Shown: positions 23,974-35,010 of the stretch, in pieces
How positions within the stretch are numbered: the first letter of the stretch is position 1
How the letters are laid out: each line of letters begins with the position of its first letter
From: Flavobacteriales bacterium
GTDB lineage: Bacteria; Bacteroidota; Bacteroidia; Flavobacteriales_D; Crocinitomicaceae
Length of the DNA stretch: 45,198 nt
Assembly: GCA_022361195.1 (NCBI GenBank)
Contig: JAKSBJ010000129.1
Coordinates: forward strand, 1 to 45,198
Direction: 5' to 3'
The notes under the pieces: model-generated
The model's input: only the letters and a program-made list of their open reading frames with translations
Database searches by the model: none
What the model was told of the DNA's origin: nothing
Made by a program: the position numbers and the translations under genes

Positions 23974-24792
23974 TTATACATAGACATACATTGGAGAAGC
24001 CAAATCACCATTGTTAGAGGCATTCTTTATCTCCAAGTTCATGGGGTCAGGATTTGGTAATGCCTGAAAAATTGTTTTCTGAATTTTTCGAGAAGCAGTC
24101 AATCTGCCTGTCCCACTTTGATTATTGACCAATTTAAACTTGTATTTGGGACGATAACTCAAAGGAATGAGGGTTAAGCCCGAACTGAATAATAAAGCTG
24201 TTTGTTTGTTGGGTAATATTACCTCTTCTGGTCCTTCAAATAAAACCTCTTCTGAACCAGTAATTTCTGGCTCAGAAAGGTCTAAAGAACTCTGATTAAT
24301 AATGTAATAGTTCCATTGCGTTTTACGAGCAGTAAAGGAAAGATCAAATATCTCCGTGCTTAAAATGTCTTTAAAATAAAGACGAATTATAGCCAACTTT
24401 GTATATTCTCCCTGTTCAAATCTCCCCTTCCCTAAATCAATTTGGCCTTCATCAACTTTAGTTCCTTCATTGCTATTAAAAACAAGACGCCCCAGTTCAT
24501 TTACCGGAACGTCAGTATATTGATAAAAGCTATTTTCTTCAGTTACTAACTCAAATACAAAGGCATTTTCACCAGTAATTTTTTCGACATATTGAAACCG
24601 ATCCTTTAGATCGCCCGAGTTTTGTGTATATAATCTAATGATATTATCTCTAAAGTATGTAACAGTGAATCCATATTTAGAAACCCATTGCTCAGTAGCT
24701 GCAGACAGCTTTAATTGAATGGGATAAGTCATCTCCAAATCAAAATAACTGTGGCTTATTTTCACCTCTGATATTTTTGTATAGCTAATCAT
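23974..24792 (-). CDS. Hypothetical protein, 272 aa, between the cap-like and sheath genes. eCIS-associated, function unknown.
   Basis: ORF-track ORF with a 4-nt overlap onto the upstream gene. No motif recognised. Confidence 0.45.
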   Translation of the reverse strand: MISYTKISEVKISHSYFDLEMTYPIQLKLSAATEQWVSKYGFTVTYFRDNIIRLYTQNSGDLKDRFQYVEKITGENAFVFELVTEENSFYQYTDVPVNELGRLVFNSNEGTKVDEGQIDLGKGRFEQGEYTKLAIIRLYFKDILSTEIFDLSFTARKTQWNYYIINQSSLDLSEPEITGSEEVLFEGPEEVILPNKQTALLFSSGLTLIPLSYRPKYKFKLVNNQSGTGRLTASRKIQKTIFQALPNPDPMNLEIKNASNNGDLASPMYVYV

Positions 24793-25364
24793 TGATTTGG
24801 TAAAACTGGATTGGATTGGTTGGTAACCGGAGCGACAAAACCTTGTGTATTTTCTGACTCAATAGTGATTAATCTCATCTTATAAATCACAGAAGGAACA
24901 TATTTCGCTCCCATTGCACTCCAAAGGTTATGCATCTCGAAATAACTGATTTTCTCTACTTCAAATTCAAGGCGATCAATTCCCTCGGGAAGATTTGAGT
25001 ACGAAGAAGAATTAACCACTGGATTTATCTGGAAAAACTGAATTCCCGAATTGAGAAACTTGAGTGTTTCTGTATAATCATCAAAACTTGAAGACACTAA
25101 TAGGTCTATATTATACCTTTCGGGCCGTCTTACATTTGAGAAGCTTCCATCCGACAAGCGTTGGTTACGTACATAAAACTGGCGATTAGTTTCCTGAGCA
25201 ATATTGATCATAGAAATGACCAACTTATTTTGATTTGGCTTGGGAACCGAACCATCGGCTTCAATAAGGTTATTGATCAACACTTTTGATTCGTTCAAAC
25301 CAAATTGATTACGTACAAACTGATCCAATGAATTGGCAGTAAACTGTAGCACTGTGTCGATCAT
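24789..25364 (-). CDS. DUF4255-like protein, candidate tube/sheath terminator cap (Afp16/Pvc16-like N-domain), 191 aa. First gene of the operon.
   Basis: It has the size and N-terminal pattern (MIDTVLQFTANSLDQFV...) of cap-family proteins that often open eCIS loci. The assignment is tentative. It is preceded by a 206-bp promoter region. Confidence 0.45.
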   Translation of the reverse strand: MIDTVLQFTANSLDQFVRNQFGLNESKVLINNLIEADGSVPKPNQNKLVISMINIAQETNRQFYVRNQRLSDGSFSNVRRPERYNIDLLVSSSFDDYTETLKFLNSGIQFFQINPVVNSSSYSNLPEGIDRLEFEVEKISYFEMHNLWSAMGAKYVPSVIYKMRLITIESENTQGFVAPVTNQSNPVLPNQ

Positions 25365-25453
25365 CTTTATATAAGGTTTACTTTCTCGTTTTGGGTTTGT
25401 GAAAAAAGTCTGATCGTAAAGTTATTAGGAAGCCATTCGGAAAAAGAATTTCA

Positions 25454-25514
25454 AAATAGACGATCCATAGACAGCTTTTTAAATGATTAAAAAAAGCATA
25501 GACAAAACATAGAC
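25454..25514 (-). promoter_or_regulatory. Candidate operator or promoter of the eCIS operon. Two pairs of direct repeats (ATAGAC / CATAGACA on the plus strand, TGTCTATG on the coding strand) sit at 25455, 25466, 25497 and 25508. Spacing is 11 bp within each pair and 42 bp between pairs.
   Basis: The repeats were read directly from the sequence. They lie 90-150 bp upstream of the first eCIS start codon and downstream of the LuxR-family gene. Confidence 0.35.
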
Positions 25515-25570
25515 ATGGCGTTTTGGGCAAAAAAACTCCCTCAAACAGAACTCTTTATAAAGGCTGGATT

Positions 25571-26497
25571 TTAGACTAGATCCGAATAGATTTCACGATT
25601 TCCTCTACTCTCCTGAATGGGAGTTGAAGTTCTTGAAGAAAAAGATTGTAAATAGTTTCTCAGGTTTTGATCCTTAGACAAGGCCATTTTCTTTTTGAGG
25701 CGGTATTTGTGCGTCCGAACACTTTCGGAATTAATGCTCAACAGACGTTTAATGTCTTCGGTAGACATATTCATCTTTAAATAGCAGCAATATTTTAAAT
25801 CACGTGAAGTAAGGCCTGGAAATTTTTGGGAGAGCCTTTCGAGGAACTGTGGATTAATACTTTCAAAATAGATTTTAAAGTCATCCCAATGTTTTTCATC
25901 CGAAGTAGACACTTTTATTGAATTCATAATGGACATCAACTCTCTGCGGGTTGATTCATCTACATTTGAAATTAAATCACTAATGCGCCTTTTTACCTGG
26001 ATTAAAGTTTGATTCCGTTTCTCAATTTCCATAACATGCCGGCTAAGATTACGACTGTAATTGGACTGTTGATCAACCAGACTACCTGCAGGAACAAATG
26101 ATTTTTGTAAGGGTTGTTCCCTTAAACGTGCGAGTTTGAGAATAGATCGGACCTTTAAACAAAAACTATGAGGCTGTTCCAAAATATCTTCTCGTTCAAA
26201 AAAGACAATATTATGATCTTCACAACGCACTGGTTGAACATGATGCATTTTATTAATACATAAAACCGGAATGCTAAATTTCCTCCAATGAACATTCAAA
26301 CCATTTAAAGCACTTTGGTTATCCTCAAAACTCATAAGAAGAAGAGAAGGCTTAATGCTTTTGGTAATGGATAATACCTCAGCATGACGACTTGCTGTGA
26401 CAAAATCAGCTTCTATTTCAGACCTTAATAATTGCATGATTGCAACTAGTTTATCTGGTCTGTCACAGCAAAGAATTATGCAGGCACGCTTTGTCAT
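25571..26497 (-). CDS. LuxR-family transcriptional regulator with a degenerate, receiver-like N-domain (atypical response regulator), 308 aa.
   Basis: The C-terminal HTH reads STEDIKRLLSINSESVRTHKYRLKKKM, which is LuxR/GerE type. The N-terminal region has a receiver-like layout, but CDRPD replaces the DD pair and LLLMSFEDN replaces the phospho-acceptor LxxD. Confidence 0.65.
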   Translation of the reverse strand: MTKRACIILCCDRPDKLVAIMQLLRSEIEADFVTASRHAEVLSITKSIKPSLLLMSFEDNQSALNGLNVHWRKFSIPVLCINKMHHVQPVRCEDHNIVFFEREDILEQPHSFCLKVRSILKLARLREQPLQKSFVPAGSLVDQQSNYSRNLSRHVMEIEKRNQTLIQVKRRISDLISNVDESTRRELMSIMNSIKVSTSDEKHWDDFKIYFESINPQFLERLSQKFPGLTSRDLKYCCYLKMNMSTEDIKRLLSINSESVRTHKYRLKKKMALSKDQNLRNYLQSFSSRTSTPIQESRGNREIYSDLV

Positions 26498-26779
26498 AAA
26501 TGAAATTCAAAGCTTGGCCACTGCAGGCATACACAGAATATAAATATCCATGATGTGAGGATTTTGGGTTAAGCCCGCTTTTCCACATCCTCTTGCCTTT
26601 TCAAAAACGGGAAACTAAGGTAGACATCGCAAATCATTATATTATAAGACTTTACACCTATTTTAAAATTATTTTTTTATGCTTTAAGACCTATGAAAGA
26701 AGGTAATAAGTAGGATAACACAAGAGAAAATGATTCTTTTAAAGAGTCAGAATCATTACAATTTCAGTACTTTTCGTTT

Positions 26780-27181
26780 ATGTCCTCTCAAGTAAGTTTA
26801 TTAGTTGGCATTGGCATTTTCGTAATCATTCTTCTTGCCCTTAAATTGGGCTTTAACAAGTTTGACAAAAGCAGAAAAGGTTCATTACATTCTGATGTAG
26901 TTGATTTCAAAACAGCTTGCAAACAAAACAATATTTTTGAGGTCAATCGTTTAGGAGCCCGAATCGTGAATAATCCTTATCTCACCCTTGAAATTTTTCG
27001 TAAAATTTTACTCGAATATAAAGACTTTAAAAAGGACCAAACTCCACCTAAGAAGGCATTAGAGAAATTCGATGATGCTATTCATACAAGACGCTTTAAT
27101 TGGGGGCTTTACGCTCATCGTTTTAAAGACCCTGAAGAATACAAAAAAGCAAAAGAGGATATTGTAAATTTTCATGAATAA
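26780..27181 (+). CDS. Hypothetical membrane-anchored protein, 133 aa, with an N-terminal transmembrane helix.
   Basis: The hydrophobic N-terminus LLVGIGIFVIILLALKLGF is the basis. No other motif. Confidence 0.4.
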   Translation: MSSQVSLLVGIGIFVIILLALKLGFNKFDKSRKGSLHSDVVDFKTACKQNNIFEVNRLGARIVNNPYLTLEIFRKILLEYKDFKKDQTPPKKALEKFDDAIHTRRFNWGLYAHRFKDPEEYKKAKEDIVNFHE

Positions 27182-27223
27182 GAAGGCACGTTATTTGTAG
27201 GTTTAATCCAAAATTGAACAGCT

Positions 27224-28459
27224 TTGAATGCTACCCTGAAAAAACTGCTGAACTGTAGCAAAAATGTTTTCCTTTTTCTGCTTTTAATTCCAGGACCTGG
27301 ATTTGGACAGTACGATTCTTATACAGACACTTTAGCCGAGATAAAACGGAAAAAAACACATTATGAATATTCCTATTATGATTCAGGCGAATTGTTATCT
27401 ATTGAGAGAGGACGCTGGAGATCAGACATTCCTATCAAGTCCTATTTTTATAAAAACGGTTATTTAAAAACTGATGTATTTATTGGTGCCACATACCACT
27501 ACTCTGAGTCTGTCAAAGATCAAATTGTGCAACGTCTTATAGGAAACCCAGATTACCCTGGTGCTCCAACATATGATTATAGGGATGGGGAATTGTATCA
27601 AATCACATCCTTAAAAAGAGTTAATAAAGGGATGACTAAAATCCCTTACATGATTTCAAAAGGACAATTTATAAAACAAAGACTTTACGATGGAACCATT
27701 AATTTTTATTCAGAAGATGATCAATTCCTTGTATCAAAAAAGGTGAAAAATGGAAAACAACAAGAAGGTTTAATTTATCAGGGAGAAATCTGTAATTTGA
27801 CTGATAGTACTGGCAAAAGACAAGGTAAATGGGTTGATTTGGGGCTAAAGAGTTATGAAGAGGATCTTTCGTCAGGAGATCTAAAAAACAAGTTTATCCA
27901 AAAAATTGAGTTCTATGAAGACGGAATTCCAGTTGACACAACTTTTCGTTTCTACAAGTCTGGGAATCTGCATAGCATCCATATCCACCAAAAAGACAGT
28001 ATTGCACCATACAGCATTCTTTACCGGGAAGATGGGACACTAAAACAAAAAATAACTTACTCAAAAGACCAAAATGGCCTTTTTTCCATCCTAACTACAC
28101 ATTATTATTCTGACTCAATACAGGATTGTATTGTTAAAAAGACAATTGAACGAAAAGGACAAGCATTTCCTAATTTCACCTATGCATTCAAAGACTGTCA
28201 ACTCTACTCCAAAACATCTACCCGACGAGAAATTTATCATAATGATGAAACAACAGAAATTGAAGAAATTATTGACGGAAGAACATATACCCGAACAGTA
28301 GAAATTGGGTTTGATACTCGGCCAATTCCTTACACCGCGGAAATTGGAACCTTTGATGATGAGGGGGTGAACCTAGTAAATGGGAAAATATGTTACTATT
28401 CAGCTAGAGGAGAATTATTACATTGCAAAGAGGTCATTAACGGTTTAATTATTGAATAA
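27224..28459 (+). CDS. Secreted MORN-variant (YwqK-like) repeat protein, 411 aa.
   Basis: A signal peptide (LFLLLIPGPGFGQ) is followed by repeated Y-x-x-G-x-L/K-x-x-x-x-Y units, for example YYDSGELLSIERGRW, FYKNGYLKTDVF, FYKSGNLHSIH and YREDGTLKQKITY. Confidence 0.5.
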   Translation: MNATLKKLLNCSKNVFLFLLLIPGPGFGQYDSYTDTLAEIKRKKTHYEYSYYDSGELLSIERGRWRSDIPIKSYFYKNGYLKTDVFIGATYHYSESVKDQIVQRLIGNPDYPGAPTYDYRDGELYQITSLKRVNKGMTKIPYMISKGQFIKQRLYDGTINFYSEDDQFLVSKKVKNGKQQEGLIYQGEICNLTDSTGKRQGKWVDLGLKSYEEDLSSGDLKNKFIQKIEFYEDGIPVDTTFRFYKSGNLHSIHIHQKDSIAPYSILYREDGTLKQKITYSKDQNGLFSILTTHYYSDSIQDCIVKKTIERKGQAFPNFTYAFKDCQLYSKTSTRREIYHNDETTEIEEIIDGRTYTRTVEIGFDTRPIPYTAEIGTFDDEGVNLVNGKICYYSARGELLHCKEVINGLIIE

Positions 28460-29191
28460 ATGAATAGGGTAATTCTGGCTACAAGCATTAAACGTTTTTT
28501 ATTTAGCTTGTTTATCACACTAGCTTTAGTTTCTTGTAAAAATGAAACTGCTGATTCTATTCCCACCTCCAAAAGTGATAGTGAAATACCAGAACAAGAT
28601 TCTCTGGATAGCTCCTCCAAACCGACTCTTTATACTGGGCAAAGTAGTGATTCTATCTACAGTTGTGATTTATTGATTGAGGGTGACAGTTCCGTTATTT
28701 TTGTTGTGAGCCAAAGAGAAGCCTGGATATATACTGAATATCGTGGGGAAATGACTCACTTAAAAGACTCCATTTACAAACTCGATTTGGAATTAGACTA
28801 TGGCCACTACATCTGCAGAGCCTGGCGACATGACAGTCTTCAACTCTTAAGAAATCCTAACCAATTTCCTGAATTGGATTCTGCCGAAGTATGGTATAAA
28901 AATGGAACTGTTTTAAACCAAAAAGTAATCAGTGATGATTATATTTCCTACCCTATTCCAATTGACAGCTTTTATCGAAAACAAAGTATCTATGTTGATC
29001 CTCATCACCAAAACCCAATTACCAATGAGGCTTTAATTTTAGGGATTCCCAGTATGTCATCATCCGAATTTATAAGAGGTGAAAAATTAAACTTTGAGCT
29101 GTTCTTATCAAAAGATAAGCTATACCCTGTTGACGAAAAAGTACTCCAATTTGGAAACTTTGAACTAACACTAGCTTCTACATTACCTTAA
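28460..29191 (+). CDS. Hypothetical lipoprotein, 243 aa.
   Basis: A signal peptide with a lipobox-like LALVSC is followed by a Ser/Asp-rich linker. Its start abuts the stop of the upstream gene. Confidence 0.45.
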   Translation: MNRVILATSIKRFLFSLFITLALVSCKNETADSIPTSKSDSEIPEQDSLDSSSKPTLYTGQSSDSIYSCDLLIEGDSSVIFVVSQREAWIYTEYRGEMTHLKDSIYKLDLELDYGHYICRAWRHDSLQLLRNPNQFPELDSAEVWYKNGTVLNQKVISDDYISYPIPIDSFYRKQSIYVDPHHQNPITNEALILGIPSMSSSEFIRGEKLNFELFLSKDKLYPVDEKVLQFGNFELTLASTLP

Positions 29192-29332: not shown

Positions 29333-30043
29333 ATGAGTATTAAGGCGATCATCATTGAAGATGAAAAATCTTCCAGAATAGTATTAAAAAGTTATATCAA
29401 TCGGTATTTCCCTGATGTAATTGTTGAGTCAGAACAGGATACGGTAGAAGGGGCTATTAACTATTTGCAAAATCATTCCCCAGACATTATCTTTTTAGAC
29501 ATTCAACTAAGAGATGGAATTGGCCTTGATATTTTTGAACGAATCAATTCTGAAAATCAACGTATCATATTTACAACAGCTAATTCGGAATATACTCTTA
29601 AGGCTTTTGAACTAAAGGCATTTGGTTATCTATTAAAGCCTTTTAGTCCTGTCGATTTTAAGAAGATCATGAACAGAATCATTAAGGACATTTCATACGC
29701 TGATATTAGTCAAAACAAGATAAAAGTCAATGTTAAACAAGGCATTGTATATCTCAACCCTCAAGACATTATCCGTTGTGAATCACAAAGTAATTACACC
29801 GAGATTTTTTGCAAATCATCGCACAAACCCTTTGTAATTGCCAAAACTCTCAAAATGGTTGAATCAATATTAACCAGTAGCCACTTTTTCTTTCGCATTC
29901 ATCAATCTCATTTGGTGAACTTTTCATACATCACCAAACCAATCATTAAAAACAATAGTATTGAATTAACTACTGGAGAGTTTTTACCCATTTCCAAATC
30001 GAGAAAATCTGATTTCACAGAATTTCTTGGGCGACTTAGCTAG
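29333..30043 (+). CDS. LytTR-family response regulator (REC plus LytTR DNA-binding domain), 236 aa.
   Basis: The receiver reads IIEDE...DIIFLDIQLRDGIGLD. The C-terminal LytTR region includes IIRCESQSNYTEIF and FFRIHQSHLVN. Confidence 0.8.
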   Translation: MSIKAIIIEDEKSSRIVLKSYINRYFPDVIVESEQDTVEGAINYLQNHSPDIIFLDIQLRDGIGLDIFERINSENQRIIFTTANSEYTLKAFELKAFGYLLKPFSPVDFKKIMNRIIKDISYADISQNKIKVNVKQGIVYLNPQDIIRCESQSNYTEIFCKSSHKPFVIAKTLKMVESILTSSHFFFRIHQSHLVNFSYITKPIIKNNSIELTTGEFLPISKSRKSDFTEFLGRLS

Positions 30044-30051
30044 ACAGATGG

Positions 30052-30801
30052 TTATTTAAACTGTTCTAAGAAACCGGCCTTACGATAACGGCTAACATTG
30101 AACTTTTCTCCATCCGTCATCTGCACTTTGCCACCTACTCCTTTATAATATTTAGTAATGTGTCGTAAATTGACGATGGTACTTTGATGAATTCGATAAA
30201 AACCATGTTCATACAACAATTCCTCATACTCTCCAAGCGTGGTACTTGTCATTATTTTACGATTTCCGGTTAAAATGAAATTGGTGTAATTTCCATCTCC
30301 CTCCAAACGAATGATATCTTCTACCAAAGAGACATCAAAACCTTTCATATGATTGATGATCAGCTTTTTGATCTTTCGTTCATCTTGATAATTCTCCATC
30401 AACACTTTAACCCGATTATTAGCTCCTTCTTTTAAAGCTTGTAAATGATTCTCCAAACGATCTACAACCACCTTAAGTTCATCCAATTTCATGGGTTTAA
30501 GCAAATAGCCAAATGCTGAGAACTGAAATGCTTGTATAGCATATTGATTATAAGCCGTTGTAAATACTACTTCAAAATCAACGTTCTCTATCTTTTGCAA
30601 TAAGTCAAAGCCCGTTCCTTCATGCATTTGTACATCCAAAAAGATAACATCCGGCTTTGTTTTTTGAATGACCTCTACTCCACTATTTACGTCATCTGCC
30701 TCGCCGACAACTTTTATGGGACTATTGGGTAAACGATCCAACATCCCCAACAACAGTCTCCTTGCCGGATTTTCATCATCAATTATTACTGTTCGGATCA
30801 T
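30052..30801 (-). CDS. LytTR-family response regulator, 249 aa, translationally coupled to the upstream kinase.
   Basis: The receiver reads VIIDDE...DVIFLDVQMHEGTGFD. The LytTR region includes IIRLEGDGNYTNF and FYRIHQSTIVN. It has an ATGA overlap with the kinase gene. Confidence 0.8.
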   Translation of the reverse strand: MIRTVIIDDENPARRLLLGMLDRLPNSPIKVVGEADDVNSGVEVIQKTKPDVIFLDVQMHEGTGFDLLQKIENVDFEVVFTTAYNQYAIQAFQFSAFGYLLKPMKLDELKVVVDRLENHLQALKEGANNRVKVLMENYQDERKIKKLIINHMKGFDVSLVEDIIRLEGDGNYTNFILTGNRKIMTSTTLGEYEELLYEHGFYRIHQSTIVNLRHITKYYKGVGGKVQMTDGEKFNVSRYRKAGFLEQFK

Positions 30802-32678
30802 ATTGGCACTTTTACGGTTACTAAGGTTCCTGGAGAAAGGCTTTGTACCTTTACTTTAGTTCCCAAACGTTGTTCGGTTATCTTCATTCCTTTAGATTCA
30901 TGCGTAGAGGACTTTACAACATTATCTATCCCCACTCCATTATCTTCTATTTCACAAATCAAATGACGAGCATTGTCTTGTATACGCATTCTAACTTTAA
31001 CCAGGCCCTTTTCTTTTTTTGGTAAAATCCCATGCCAAATTGCATTTTCAACAAAGGGCTGAATAACCATGGGCGGAACCTTTGTTCCCAATTTATCAAT
31101 CCGATCATCCAAATCAATCTGATACTCCAACATCCCAATATTACGTCCTTTTTCCAAATCAAGATAAAGACGTAACATGCTCATTTCTTCCTTTATAGTA
31201 ATCTTTTCTTTACCACTATTGTCCAATATTTTACGCATGAGTTTACCAAAGTCGCCCATATAGTCGTTGGCCATGTCTAACTCTCCCGTAATATACAATT
31301 GCTGAATAGCTCCTAAACTGTTAAATATAAAGTGAGGATTCATTTGAGCACGAAGAATTTTTTGCTCCATTTCGGCTTTATTTCTTTGCTCTTTGGCTCT
31401 TCGTCTACTAACGTAAAAAAGAATTACCATAATAAATGCAATACCTATGACGCTACCAGAAATCAACATAATTTTCCGCCTTTCGGCAATAGCATTTGCC
31501 TCAACTTCACGTTTTTCCAATTCAGCAATTTCCTTATCCTTTTGACTTGTTTCATACTTTGTTTGAAGCTCGTTGATTTGGTTTTTGACATCTTCCCCTG
31601 CCAAACTATCATCTAATGCATGATATTTAACATGCCACTCATAAGCTTCTTTATAGTCTCCATTAATTCGATAGGCATCTGAAAGGCCCCTATAAGAGAG
31701 TATTAACATAGGTAAGGTTCCTATTTGCTGGTTAATGGTTAAACTACTGTCATAATAGGCTATCGCTCTATTGCCATTTTGTAACTCACTCTCAATTCCG
31801 CCTAAATTATTGTAAATCATCCCAATTTCTGATTGTTGATTTAAGTGACGATAAATGTTCAATGCATCTGCATAATAAAACTTCGCACTATCCAATTCGT
31901 TGGTTTCTTTATAAATAACTCCAATGTTATTATTGAGAATGGCTATGTCATGAGAATTACTTACTTGTTTTGCCACCCTCAACGTTTGTTTGAGTTTATC
32001 CAAAGCTTTATTATATTTCTCCTGAGCAATATATACAGCAGAAACAGCATTCATACCTCTAACAATGCTGGCAGAATCACCGAGAGTCTCTCTTATGGAT
32101 AACGAACGTTGAAAAAAATCCAAGGCCTGATCATTTTGTCCAAGGCTAAAATGTACGTTTCCAACATTATGATAGGACTGTGCCTCTCCCACCTTACTCT
32201 CAACTTTCTCATAAATATCTGCTGCAGTCAGATAATAAGCCATTGCTTCGGGATAATTTCCCTGTATGATTTCTACATTACCAAGTCCAGTCATATTACC
32301 AGCTACACCAATATAGTGCTCAACAGCGGTGAAGCAATTTCGGCTTTTATGATACATCTGCCTGGATTTGTCATAATCTCCACGAAAATCATAATAGGAA
32401 CCATAATAATGATATGAGAATCCCTGCCCCTTTTTATAATCTAATTCCTGAGCCAAAGCCAGAGCTTTGTCCAAACACTCTTTTGCTTTTTCGGGTTCTG
32501 TTTTTGATTGAAGTTTATACAGTTTATTTAAGGCTATAACTTCATTTGTATCTCTTTTATTTTCGTTGACAAGCTCATATAACTCTTCAATGCTCTCCTG
32601 TCCAAAAACGTTCATCCCCACAAAGAAGAACCCCAGAAAAATCCATCCCTTTTTTAAATATCTTGTTAGTTCCTTCAT
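30798..32678 (-). CDS. Sensor histidine kinase with an N-terminal signal peptide, a TPR-repeat sensor domain, one transmembrane helix and a LytS/YehU-type His_kinase plus HATPase core. 626 aa.
   Basis: TPR-like repeats run through residues about 60-360. The TM segment is IMLISGSVIGIAFIMVILFYV. The LytS-type H-box reads QMNPHFIFNSLGAIQQL. The C-terminal ATPase region includes EDNGVGI. Confidence 0.75.
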   Translation of the reverse strand: MKELTRYLKKGWIFLGFFFVGMNVFGQESIEELYELVNENKRDTNEVIALNKLYKLQSKTEPEKAKECLDKALALAQELDYKKGQGFSYHYYGSYYDFRGDYDKSRQMYHKSRNCFTAVEHYIGVAGNMTGLGNVEIIQGNYPEAMAYYLTAADIYEKVESKVGEAQSYHNVGNVHFSLGQNDQALDFFQRSLSIRETLGDSASIVRGMNAVSAVYIAQEKYNKALDKLKQTLRVAKQVSNSHDIAILNNNIGVIYKETNELDSAKFYYADALNIYRHLNQQSEIGMIYNNLGGIESELQNGNRAIAYYDSSLTINQQIGTLPMLILSYRGLSDAYRINGDYKEAYEWHVKYHALDDSLAGEDVKNQINELQTKYETSQKDKEIAELEKREVEANAIAERRKIMLISGSVIGIAFIMVILFYVSRRRAKEQRNKAEMEQKILRAQMNPHFIFNSLGAIQQLYITGELDMANDYMGDFGKLMRKILDNSGKEKITIKEEMSMLRLYLDLEKGRNIGMLEYQIDLDDRIDKLGTKVPPMVIQPFVENAIWHGILPKKEKGLVKVRMRIQDNARHLICEIEDNGVGIDNVVKSSTHESKGMKITEQRLGTKVKVQSLSPGTLVTVKVPI

Positions 32679-33636: not shown

Positions 33637-35010
33637 TTACTTCCCAATACAAAAATTAGAAAAGATATTCCCCAACAAATCATCGGAGGAAATTTGACCG
33701 GTAATTTCACCTAAAAGATTGAGCGTTTCCCGAATATCCATGGCCAACAAATCACCTGGTATTTGCATTTCAAGCCCCTCTTCTACTTTCACCAATGATT
33801 CTTCACATCTCACTAAAATCTCATAATGACGAATGTTGGTAACAATTAACTGATCTTCGGCACTTTCGTTTTGAACGGTGGCCAACAACTGTTCTACCAA
33901 TTCATTGAGGTTCTCTTGTTTTTTAGCAGAAATGAACAAACCTTTATCCTTTAGCTTTTTAAAATCCTTTGATTTGGTTTTATCTACTTTATTGAAAAGA
34001 GCAATTAGGGTTTGTCCTTCTCCCAAAGTCTTTTGTTCAAAGTTTTCAATCTGCCCCAACACAAACTCTTCGCTAGAAGTGTCCAAATCAAACAATAATA
34101 GAACTACCCGGGCTTTTTTGATTTGTTCAAAAGCACGTTCAATTCCCAAGTTTTCAATGGTATCAGAGGTTTCCCGAATTCCAGCAGTATCAATAAATCG
34201 GAATTCAATTCCTTCCAATACAATGGTATCTTCAATTACATCTCTTGTGGTTCCAGCAATGTCCGAAACAATGGCCTTATCTTCTTTTAAAAGGGCATTG
34301 AGTAAGGTTGACTTTCCAGAATTTGGAGCACCTACAATCGCTACCGGAACTCCATTTTTACTGGCATTTCAATATTGAAAAGATTGACAAAGTGAAGTCA
34401 CCTTAGCTTTCACCTGACTCACCAATTCTTTTAATTGCGTACGATCAGCAAACTCAACATCCTCCTGAGAAAAATCTAACTCTAATTCAACCAATGAGGC
34501 AAAATCCATCAATCCCTGACGCAATTCTGAAATCTCTTTGGAGAATCCTCCTCGCATTTGATGCATGGCCAAACGATGAGCTGCGGAAGAATTCGCAGCA
34601 ATTAAATCTGCCACCGCCTCTGTTTGAGAAAGATCCATCTTGCCATTCATAAAAGCACGTAACGAAAATTCACCCGCTTGGGCCATTCGTGCTCCTTTTG
34701 AAATCAATAACTTCAACAGCTCACTTTGAATGTATTGTGAACCATGACAAGCAATTTCAACTGTGTCCTGTCCTGTAAAAGAATGGGGACCTTTAAATAA
34801 AGTAACCACCACTTCATCTAAAATATGATCACCCTTTAAAATTTTACCATAATGTGCTGTATGAGAAGCTGCATTTTCAATCGACTTACTAAAAATAGAT
34901 TGGGTAATTGAAAAAGCCTTTCCTCCCGACAAACGGATTAAAGAAATGGCTCCAACTCCATTGGCAGTTGAAAGGGCACAAATTGTATCTTCCTGATTTT
35001 TAAAGCTCAT
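33637..35010 (-). pseudogene. mnmE: tRNA modification GTPase MnmE (TrmE), interrupted by an in-frame TGA at 34369-34371. It is otherwise full length and colinear. The interruption may be a nonsense mutation or a sequence error.
   Basis: The N-terminal part (34369..35010) reads DTICALSTANGVGAISLIRLSG. The same frame continues after the TGA as NASKNGVPVAIVGAPNSGKSTLLNAL (G1 motif), DTAGIRE (G3 motif) and the terminal FCIGK motif. The two ORF-track ORFs are in the same frame, separated only by this codon. Confidence 0.7.

Follow-up and report, generated by a model that had tools for sequence, protein, structure and literature searches.

A conserved array of phased direct repeats upstream of Bacteroidota eCIS operons as a candidate operator of the adjacent LuxR-type regulator

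Four short direct repeats, arranged as two pairs upstream of the first gene of an eCIS operon, are almost certainly a conserved functional promoter element. Both pairs recur in 106 of 121 non-redundant regions upstream of first eCIS genes, drawn from Flavobacteriia, Sphingobacteriia, Chitinophagia and Cytophagia. We infer from sequence comparisons that the array is bound by the LuxR-type regulator encoded beside it; probably it is the upstream operator of that protein, which would act there as an activator.

Most eCIS loci are silent in culture, which hampers work on their ecology as well as their application as programmable protein-delivery particles. Of how production of the particles is switched on, the literature searched records only a frequent GerE-domain neighbour. 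An operator of four units, with both its phasing and its distance to the core promoter fixed, and present at more than 100 loci in at least four classes of Bacteroidota, makes the switch directly testable and provides a genome-wide signature with which its regulon can be sought.

Organisation of the repeat array

The window analysed here, by which is meant the whole stretch of 45,198 nucleotides, carries a complete eCIS (Afp/PVC-like) gene set in one operon, with sheath, tube, spike/PAAR, baseplate, tape measure, ATPase and Pvc16 cap. The order of genes is Pvc16_N, an unknown protein of 272 aa, the sheath, two gp19 tubes and a CIS_tube, a VgrG-like spike and PAAR, gp25 and Baseplate_J, the CIS tape measure, an AAA ATPase and, at the end, a GH25 muramidase. 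The operon and the units of the array are listed below.

218-25364, minus strand: eCIS operon (Pfam matches), presumably under the control of the array promoter
24789-25364, minus strand: first eCIS gene, Pvc16_N / Afp16-like (Pfam PF14065, E 5e-24), the first gene downstream of the array
25508-25515, minus strand: distal unit 1, TGTCTATG; spans about -103 to -96 relative to the predicted start; fits the consensus TGTCTACG
25497-25504, minus strand: distal unit 2, TGTCTATG; one 11-bp period downstream of distal unit 1
25466-25473, minus strand: proximal unit 1, TGTCTATG; displaced 42 bp downstream from distal unit 1; about -61 to -54
25455-25462, minus strand: proximal unit 2, CGTCTATT; one 11-bp period downstream of proximal unit 1

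A string search of the window places ATAGAC on the plus strand at 25456-25461, 25467-25472, 25498-25503 and 25509-25514. The four copies reported in the preliminary description are all present, although each of the starts given there (25455, 25466, 25497 and 25508) is 1 too low; its two spacings, 11 bp inside each pair and 42 bp from pair to pair, are right. A repeat search of the window returned an 18-nt unit at 25456-25473 and again at 25498-25515, at the 42-bp spacing. Read on the minus (transcribed) strand, the four units have a single orientation and consist of three copies of TGTCTATG and one of CGTCTATT, in the order CCA-TGTCTATG-TTT-TGTCTATG-C...(22 nt)...GC-TGTCTATG-GAT-CGTCTATT-TTG. 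The units are 8 bp long and are separated within pairs by 3-bp spacers, giving a period of 11 bp. The array lies 92-151 bp upstream of the first eCIS ATG (25364), within the 206-bp gap between the operon and the gene at 25571-26497, and this position bears out its assignment to the promoter region upstream of Pvc16_N.

The first alternative to be weighed is that an AT-rich hexamer has clustered by chance and has no function. The hexamer taken singly behaves as this would lead one to expect, since the 16 copies of ATAGAC in the window show no enrichment over the 16.1 expected. The dimer behaves otherwise: allowing at most one mismatch, ATAGAC-N5-ATAGAC occurs in the window at these two places only, against an expectation of 0.15 and with a count of 2 reached by a single shuffle in 100, and from the hexamer frequency we estimate that two exact same-strand dimers within about 50 bp would arise in roughly 1e-8 of windows. 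Weight matrices made from other genomes only give 28.5 bits to the distal pair and 16.9-19.6 bits to the proximal pair, the top scores of the 45-kb window. No further strong site of a kind that might serve autoregulation or internal operon promoters was seen there, the best other score being at most 13.6 bits, and the weight-matrix scan found no site of at least 15 bits inside the eCIS operon (218-25364). The dimer statistics, these independent matrix matches and the sequence, orientation and spacing kept in the 106 regions across several classes confirm that the repeats are non-random, as had been claimed. Chance clustering is already refuted by the comparative alignments and matrix scans, and we give it practically no probability.

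The inter-pair spacer of the window (25474-25497) is an AT-rich palindrome, GCTTTTT-N10-AAAAAGC, a stretch that shows no conservation among the other loci. No Rfam match at E of 1 or below was obtained in 25200-26900, and a terminator scan found no intrinsic terminator in the intergenic region.

Conservation among Bacteroidota

A regulator-anchored set of 80 loci was obtained by scanning one genome per species. At 68 of these the regulator is the immediate upstream neighbour of the eCIS: Pvc16_N, the 272-aa ORF and the sheath gene come next, in the same orientation. Nearly all of the intergenic regions between regulator and Pvc16 contain GTCTACGnTTTGTCTACG, followed after about 42 bp by a second pair, GTATACGAAAGGTATAT, and then by TAnnTTTAC. 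When aligned on this last box, about 66 of the 68 eCIS-linked loci line up, with the motif, and among 60 non-redundant regulator-anchored loci information is confined to the two pairs and the box, being near 0 bits elsewhere. Across the 937 kb of the 80 loci, 134 of 143 matches of at least 15 bits fall in the gap between regulator and Pvc16 and every one of these 134 is in promoter orientation, a scan that is partly circular because the matrices were built from those loci. The window scan, an eCIS-anchored set and a Kordia set are independent of the matrix training.

The eCIS-anchored set came from a metagenome scan with a Pvc16 alignment and comprises 77 loci. The motif is present in every locus of this sample that has the regulator upstream. 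Loci with neither regulator nor motif mostly have a GC content of 0.5-0.6 and are 37-45% identical, and for this reason probably belong to other phyla. Pooling of the sets gave the 121 non-redundant upstream regions in which both pairs were counted.

In the 106 loci with both pairs the consensus of the distal pair is TGTCTACGnTTTGTCTACG and that of the proximal pair TGTATACGAAAnGTATAT. All four units have the same orientation and follow the formula T-GT(C/A)TA(C/T)-G, with T at -1 and G at +7. The core G, T, T and A are essentially invariant, distal units have C at the third position, where proximal ones mostly have A, and the spacers are T-rich in the distal and A-rich in the proximal pair. 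The distance from distal to proximal pair is 41-44 bp in 91 of these loci, 31-34 bp in 14 and 40 bp in one, such that the two spacing classes differ by one helical turn; the modal value, 42 bp (47 of 106), is also that of the window. The TAnnTTTA(C) box stands 49 bp from the proximal pair in 93 of 103 loci; in five the distance is 48 bp, as in the window, and all others are between 47 and 50 bp. Since the 11-bp and 42-bp phasing is real and has been conserved in evolution, the earlier suggestion of a candidate operator controlling particle production is well founded.

Several Kordia loci at first seemed to depart from this pattern. In nine the regulator is present and no eCIS is found inside 6 kb, and it was considered that these might be paralogues. 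In both of the two that were checked further this was rejected, as one contig carries both the eCIS and, about 30 kb off, the same regulator: on CANLEA010000001.1 the eCIS begins near 175.5 kb, the regulator being found near 207 kb, and on a contig of 184,964 bp the two are about 33 kb apart. The eCIS promoters of these two Kordia and of Kordia sp. SMS9 retain all four sites (27-29 and 19-21 bits), the 42-bp spacing and a TAATTTTAG box. Intact promoters with the regulator gene some 30 kb away indicate that the element belongs to the eCIS promoter and needs no regulator gene in cis, which is what a trans-acting factor predicts.

The exact distal-pair motif was matched four times among 2.9 million viral contigs, three times in one phage coding region and never near eCIS genes, and is accordingly not a phage element. 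In loci of the F. johnsoniae group (L071-L074, L078, L053, L043 and L061) a fifth unit stands in inverted orientation (TAGACAAA...TTTGTCTA) just upstream of the distal pair. Pairs upstream of the regulator gene itself were seen only in L070 (about 3540) and L077 (about 5496), at 24.3 and 23.1 bits, and may point to autoregulation there.

Core promoter

The core promoter of the window is described by two features.

25416-25424, minus strand: -7-like box TAACTTTAC, beginning 48 bp downstream of the G of proximal unit 1
25412 (+/- 3 nt), minus strand: predicted transcription start, from the position of the box; leader of about 48 nt

The -7 box of flavobacterial sigma-A is TAnnTTTG at -12 to -5 (PMC9723704). 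The box in the window resembles this Bacteroidota sigma-A type, with A in place of G as its last base, and because the sigma-A box spans -12 to -5, placing TAACTTTAC there puts the start near 25412. Relative to this predicted start the pairs would span about -103 to -85 (distal) and about -61 to -43 (proximal). A sigma-70 promoter scan is not applicable to promoters of Bacteroidota.

Among eCIS promoters TAnnTTT is invariant and the final base is A in 91 of 101 loci. No conserved -33 element emerges from the alignment of 60 non-redundant sequences. The final A and the missing -33 element could mean that the promoter is deliberately weak, or that a different sigma factor reads it.

The upstream regulator

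The gene on the other side of the array encodes the candidate for the factor that reads it.

25571-26497, minus strand: candidate trans-factor, 308 aa; receiver-like domain without acceptor Asp, long helices and a LuxR/GerE-type HTH (LKYCCYLKMNMS...ESVRTHKYRLKKK)

A LuxR-family regulator had been noted as the immediate neighbour of the repeats, and it is indeed present, on the same strand and directly upstream of the operon. It has 419 relatives in the databases, all from Bacteroidota wherever the source names an organism (Kordia, Flavobacterium, Pedobacter, Dokdonia and Winogradskyella among them), with lengths of about 286-296 aa. Several sources label them 'CsgD family' (JGI) or 'helix-turn-helix regulator'. 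No curated family accommodates the protein: its match to Pfam GerE is below threshold (16.3 vs 23.5 bits) and its NCBIfam matches are far below their cut-offs, including a weak one to CsgD at E 2.7e-4. Its sequence matches in the PDB are marginal. In the family alignment the C-terminal motif LKYCCYLKMNMS..DI..LLGINQESVRTHKYRLKKK is invariant, and ESVRTHKYRLKKK of the HTH is invariant across the family. The reading frame opened by the ATG at 26497 (26438-26497, -) begins MTKRACIILCCD..., which fits the first beta-strand of the family; the deposited protein has 288 aa and starts 20 codons later, and the public annotation is on this ground probably 20 residues short.

An AF2 model (pLDDT 82) has a receiver-like alpha/beta domain at residues 1-107, long helices at 123-205 and a four-helix HTH at 211-268. 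The best PDB matches found with Foldseek are VraR, DosR, StyR, LiaR, EvgA, DesR and VpsT, of the NarL/FixJ family, on which the C-terminal domain superposes at 1.4-1.9 A. In a profile alignment to YycF, the position of the phospho-acceptor Asp is occupied in 30 family members by S, C, G, N, L or Y and never by Asp. Judged by that alignment the regulator is a pseudo-receiver LuxR-type protein, in which a phosphorylatable receiver would be lacking. Since the receiver-like domain has no acceptor Asp, its input is probably a ligand or a partner protein and not a histidine kinase. These findings on operator and regulator argue against a classical two-component phosphorelay as the input to eCIS production.

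Binding factor

The repeats had been proposed to be sites of the LytTR type, bound by one of two LytTR regulators 4-5 kb away, and if this were so the kinase encoded next to them would control eCIS production. The genes are real: Pfam identifies LytTR response regulators at 29333-30043 (+) and 30052-30801 (-), and a TPR-LytS-type histidine kinase (His_kinase/HATPase) at 30798-32678. LytTR proteins do bind direct repeats, but their consensus is of 9-bp repeats with a 12-bp spacer and a period of about 21 bp (PMC2766830), whereas the spacer of the array is 3 bp and its period 11 bp. A LytTR match lies within 6 kb in only 4 of the 80 regulator-anchored loci, in contrast to the motif, which is there in nearly all that are eCIS-linked, and the three ORFs that separate the LytTR genes from the regulator (26780-29191) likewise have no counterparts among the 80 loci. 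The operators of AgrA, ComE and SilA resemble the array in being direct repeats upstream of a promoter for a secreted weapon; they differ in having repeats of 9-10 bp, spacers of 11-12 bp and another consensus, and the array has no conserved LytTR partner. The comparative data already come near to refuting a LytTR factor, and we consider one very improbable.

A more serious alternative is that the operator is real and has another reader, whether an unlinked Bacteroidota regulator, a winged-helix protein of the OmpR/PhoB type or a protein encoded by the eCIS itself, with the LuxR-type protein acting elsewhere or indirectly. The layout gives some reason for this. Winged-helix proteins of the OmpR/PhoB type typically bind direct repeats with an 11-bp period, and Pho boxes and similar OmpR/PhoB sites consist of 7-8-bp direct repeats with a short AT-rich spacer, in promoters that lack the upstream hexamer. 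The array shares with Pho boxes its tandem 7-8-bp units and their 11-bp period, with several units in helical phase. Pho boxes differ in that they abut the -10 region, replace the -35 and are bound by winged-helix proteins, whereas the array stands farther upstream and its only conserved candidate is LuxR-type. HTH proteins of the NarL/FixJ type, moreover, classically bind inverted repeats, and here all four units are direct, an arrangement atypical of LuxR-type proteins. It can also be said for another reader that Kordia keeps the element without an adjoining regulator, and that at locus L129 the motif is present with no regulator within 3 kb.

Against this, the conserved neighbourhood showed neither a winged-helix protein nor any further conserved regulator. 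In both Kordia genomes that were checked, those of the L002 and L005 contigs, the LuxR-type regulator shares a contig with the eCIS, and the regulator-positive loci of the eCIS-anchored sample have the motif without exception. Binding of direct repeats is also on record for the family, as phosphorylated DegU binds them at aprE from -70 to -52 and NarL binds them as well (PMC2245950), and direct repeats are for LuxR-type HTH proteins an unusual but documented minority arrangement. We consider another reader unlikely, if still worth keeping in mind.

Binding by the LuxR-type regulator itself is favoured by the co-occurrence of a protein with a LuxR-type HTH and the array, as expected of a NarL/FixJ operator. 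The invariance of ESVRTHKYRLKKK in its HTH would match that of G, T, T and A in the units, and we have counted this in favour of the regulator. Because recognition helix and motif are both invariant no covariation between them can be obtained, and the co-occurrence of regulator and motif is confounded by phylogeny in that one clade carries both. Also to be counted against this reading are the sub-threshold GerE match of the protein, the metagenome loci L139 and L141, with a single pair and no regulator within 3 kb, and locus L054, in which regulator and sites stand before tail-collar-like genes in place of an eCIS. It is envisaged that the regulator binds head-to-tail with one HTH on each unit. 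It may sit as a dimer on each pair, the two dimers being joined through the long helical region; an interval of 42 or 32 bp keeps both pairs on the same side of the helix.

Direction of regulation

The sites lie upstream of the core promoter, their distance to the box is fixed within 1 bp, the variants in spacing differ by a helical turn and the core is weak. Such a combination suggests an activator-dependent promoter at which RNA polymerase is contacted stereospecifically. Bound between about -104 and -44, the regulator would activate the polymerase at a promoter that is otherwise weak; the upstream position and fixed spacing argue for activation and do not prove it.

It could be supposed instead that the regulator binds but represses or anti-activates, for example by looping the 42-bp interval, and that the eCIS stays silent until a signal arrives. 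Two phased pairs could support a repression loop, and eCIS loci are generally poorly expressed in culture. Every site, however, stays upstream of about -44, clear of both the -7 box and the start. A spacing to the box that is fixed within 1 bp in 98 of 103 loci fits contact with RNA polymerase and not steric repression, and the want of a -33 element together with a non-consensus box is as in activator-dependent promoters. Repression seems to us improbable.

A broader scheme may be put forward tentatively, and we consider it somewhat less likely true than false. Bacteroidota eCIS would have a phosphorylation-independent master switch, in which a pseudo-receiver LuxR-type activator, bound as a dimer of dimers head-to-tail on four phased units, recruits RNA polymerase to a TAnnTTTA promoter devoid of a -33 element and is itself switched by a ligand or partner through the pseudo-receiver. 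Were this scheme true, expressing or activating one protein would start the production of eCIS particles in many silent species.

Relation to known systems

Genes with a GerE domain adjoin 25.8% of eCIS loci, and have been called the first conserved eCIS regulator, with possible kinase or two-component input (PMC8213781). This observation of Geller et al. 2021 includes the protein of 25571-26497 and has in common with the present one a LuxR-type HTH gene beside the eCIS and its proposal as master regulator. It differs in that it concerns gene adjacency only, and not a binding site, the architecture of the promoter or the pseudo-receiver nature of the protein (PMC8213781). A 2026 review only repeats the adjacency of GerE (PMC12961389). 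No published description of an eCIS operator was found in the literature searched, in which subscription journals are incompletely covered. Relative to that literature the operator and its phasing, the non-consensus box and the loss of the phospho-acceptor Asp are new; as a kind of thing, a transcription-factor operator is ordinary.

A parallel in layout is offered by the sites of phosphorylated DegU at aprE, sacB and bpr of Bacillus subtilis (PMC2245950), where an activator with an HTH of the NarL/LuxR type also uses direct repeats in tandem, placed upstream of the core promoter. Of these the aprE site is comparable in position to the proximal pair, at about -62 to -44. DegU differs in that its repeats are spaced by 0-2 nt and its binding depends on phosphorylation, whereas here the period is 11 bp, the pairs are two and phased, and there is no acceptor Asp. 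In its domains the regulator resembles proteins of the VpsT / CsgD type, which likewise combine a receiver-like N-terminal domain with a LuxR HTH and are not controlled by a cognate kinase, and VpsT is among its fold matches. Their sequence similarity is marginal, and the regulator family is set apart by an additional module, helical and about 80 residues long (123-205).

Other observations

Elsewhere in the window a Por_Secre_tail protein is encoded, which assigns the contig to Bacteroidota, and the GH25 muramidase that ends the operon (218-1009, -, E 7e-37) could serve lysis-dependent release of the particles or be an antibacterial payload. The mnmE/trmE gene at 33637-35010 (-) is split into two ORFs with a gap of about 150 nt and a change of frame. 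The ORF at 34369-35010 has TrmE_N and the start of the helical domain, and that at 33637-34218 a remnant of the G domain and the helical end, an arrangement that would correspond to a pseudogene, a frameshift or an error of MAG assembly.

In the Kordia loci whose regulator does not adjoin the eCIS, it is followed by two small ORFs on the opposite strand (L002, 6830-7392, -; also L003-L006, L008, L011, L014 and L030). They have a leader of the form MKK..SLKKLTLNK...GG and Cys/Pro-rich repeats (CPIDT...), with a beta-lactamase-fold protein and DUF2589 nearby, and by their sequence look like precursors of RiPPs or bacteriocins.

Two metagenome loci, L139 and L141, have one pair only (18.2 and 12.2 bits), about 366 bp upstream of Pvc16. 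In these TAGATTTTT follows about 47 bp past the pair and precedes a leader of about 300 nt, and no regulator is found within 3 kb upstream. In Flavobacterium sp. ov086 (L054, 6997-9425) the regulator and both pairs are present (22.0 and 16.7 bits), and in place of Pvc16 and the sheath there follow three tandem proteins of about 179 aa resembling phage tail collar and MdpB proteins (GxIxLFAG..LPDLRGR). This may be a rearranged locus or a second class of target.
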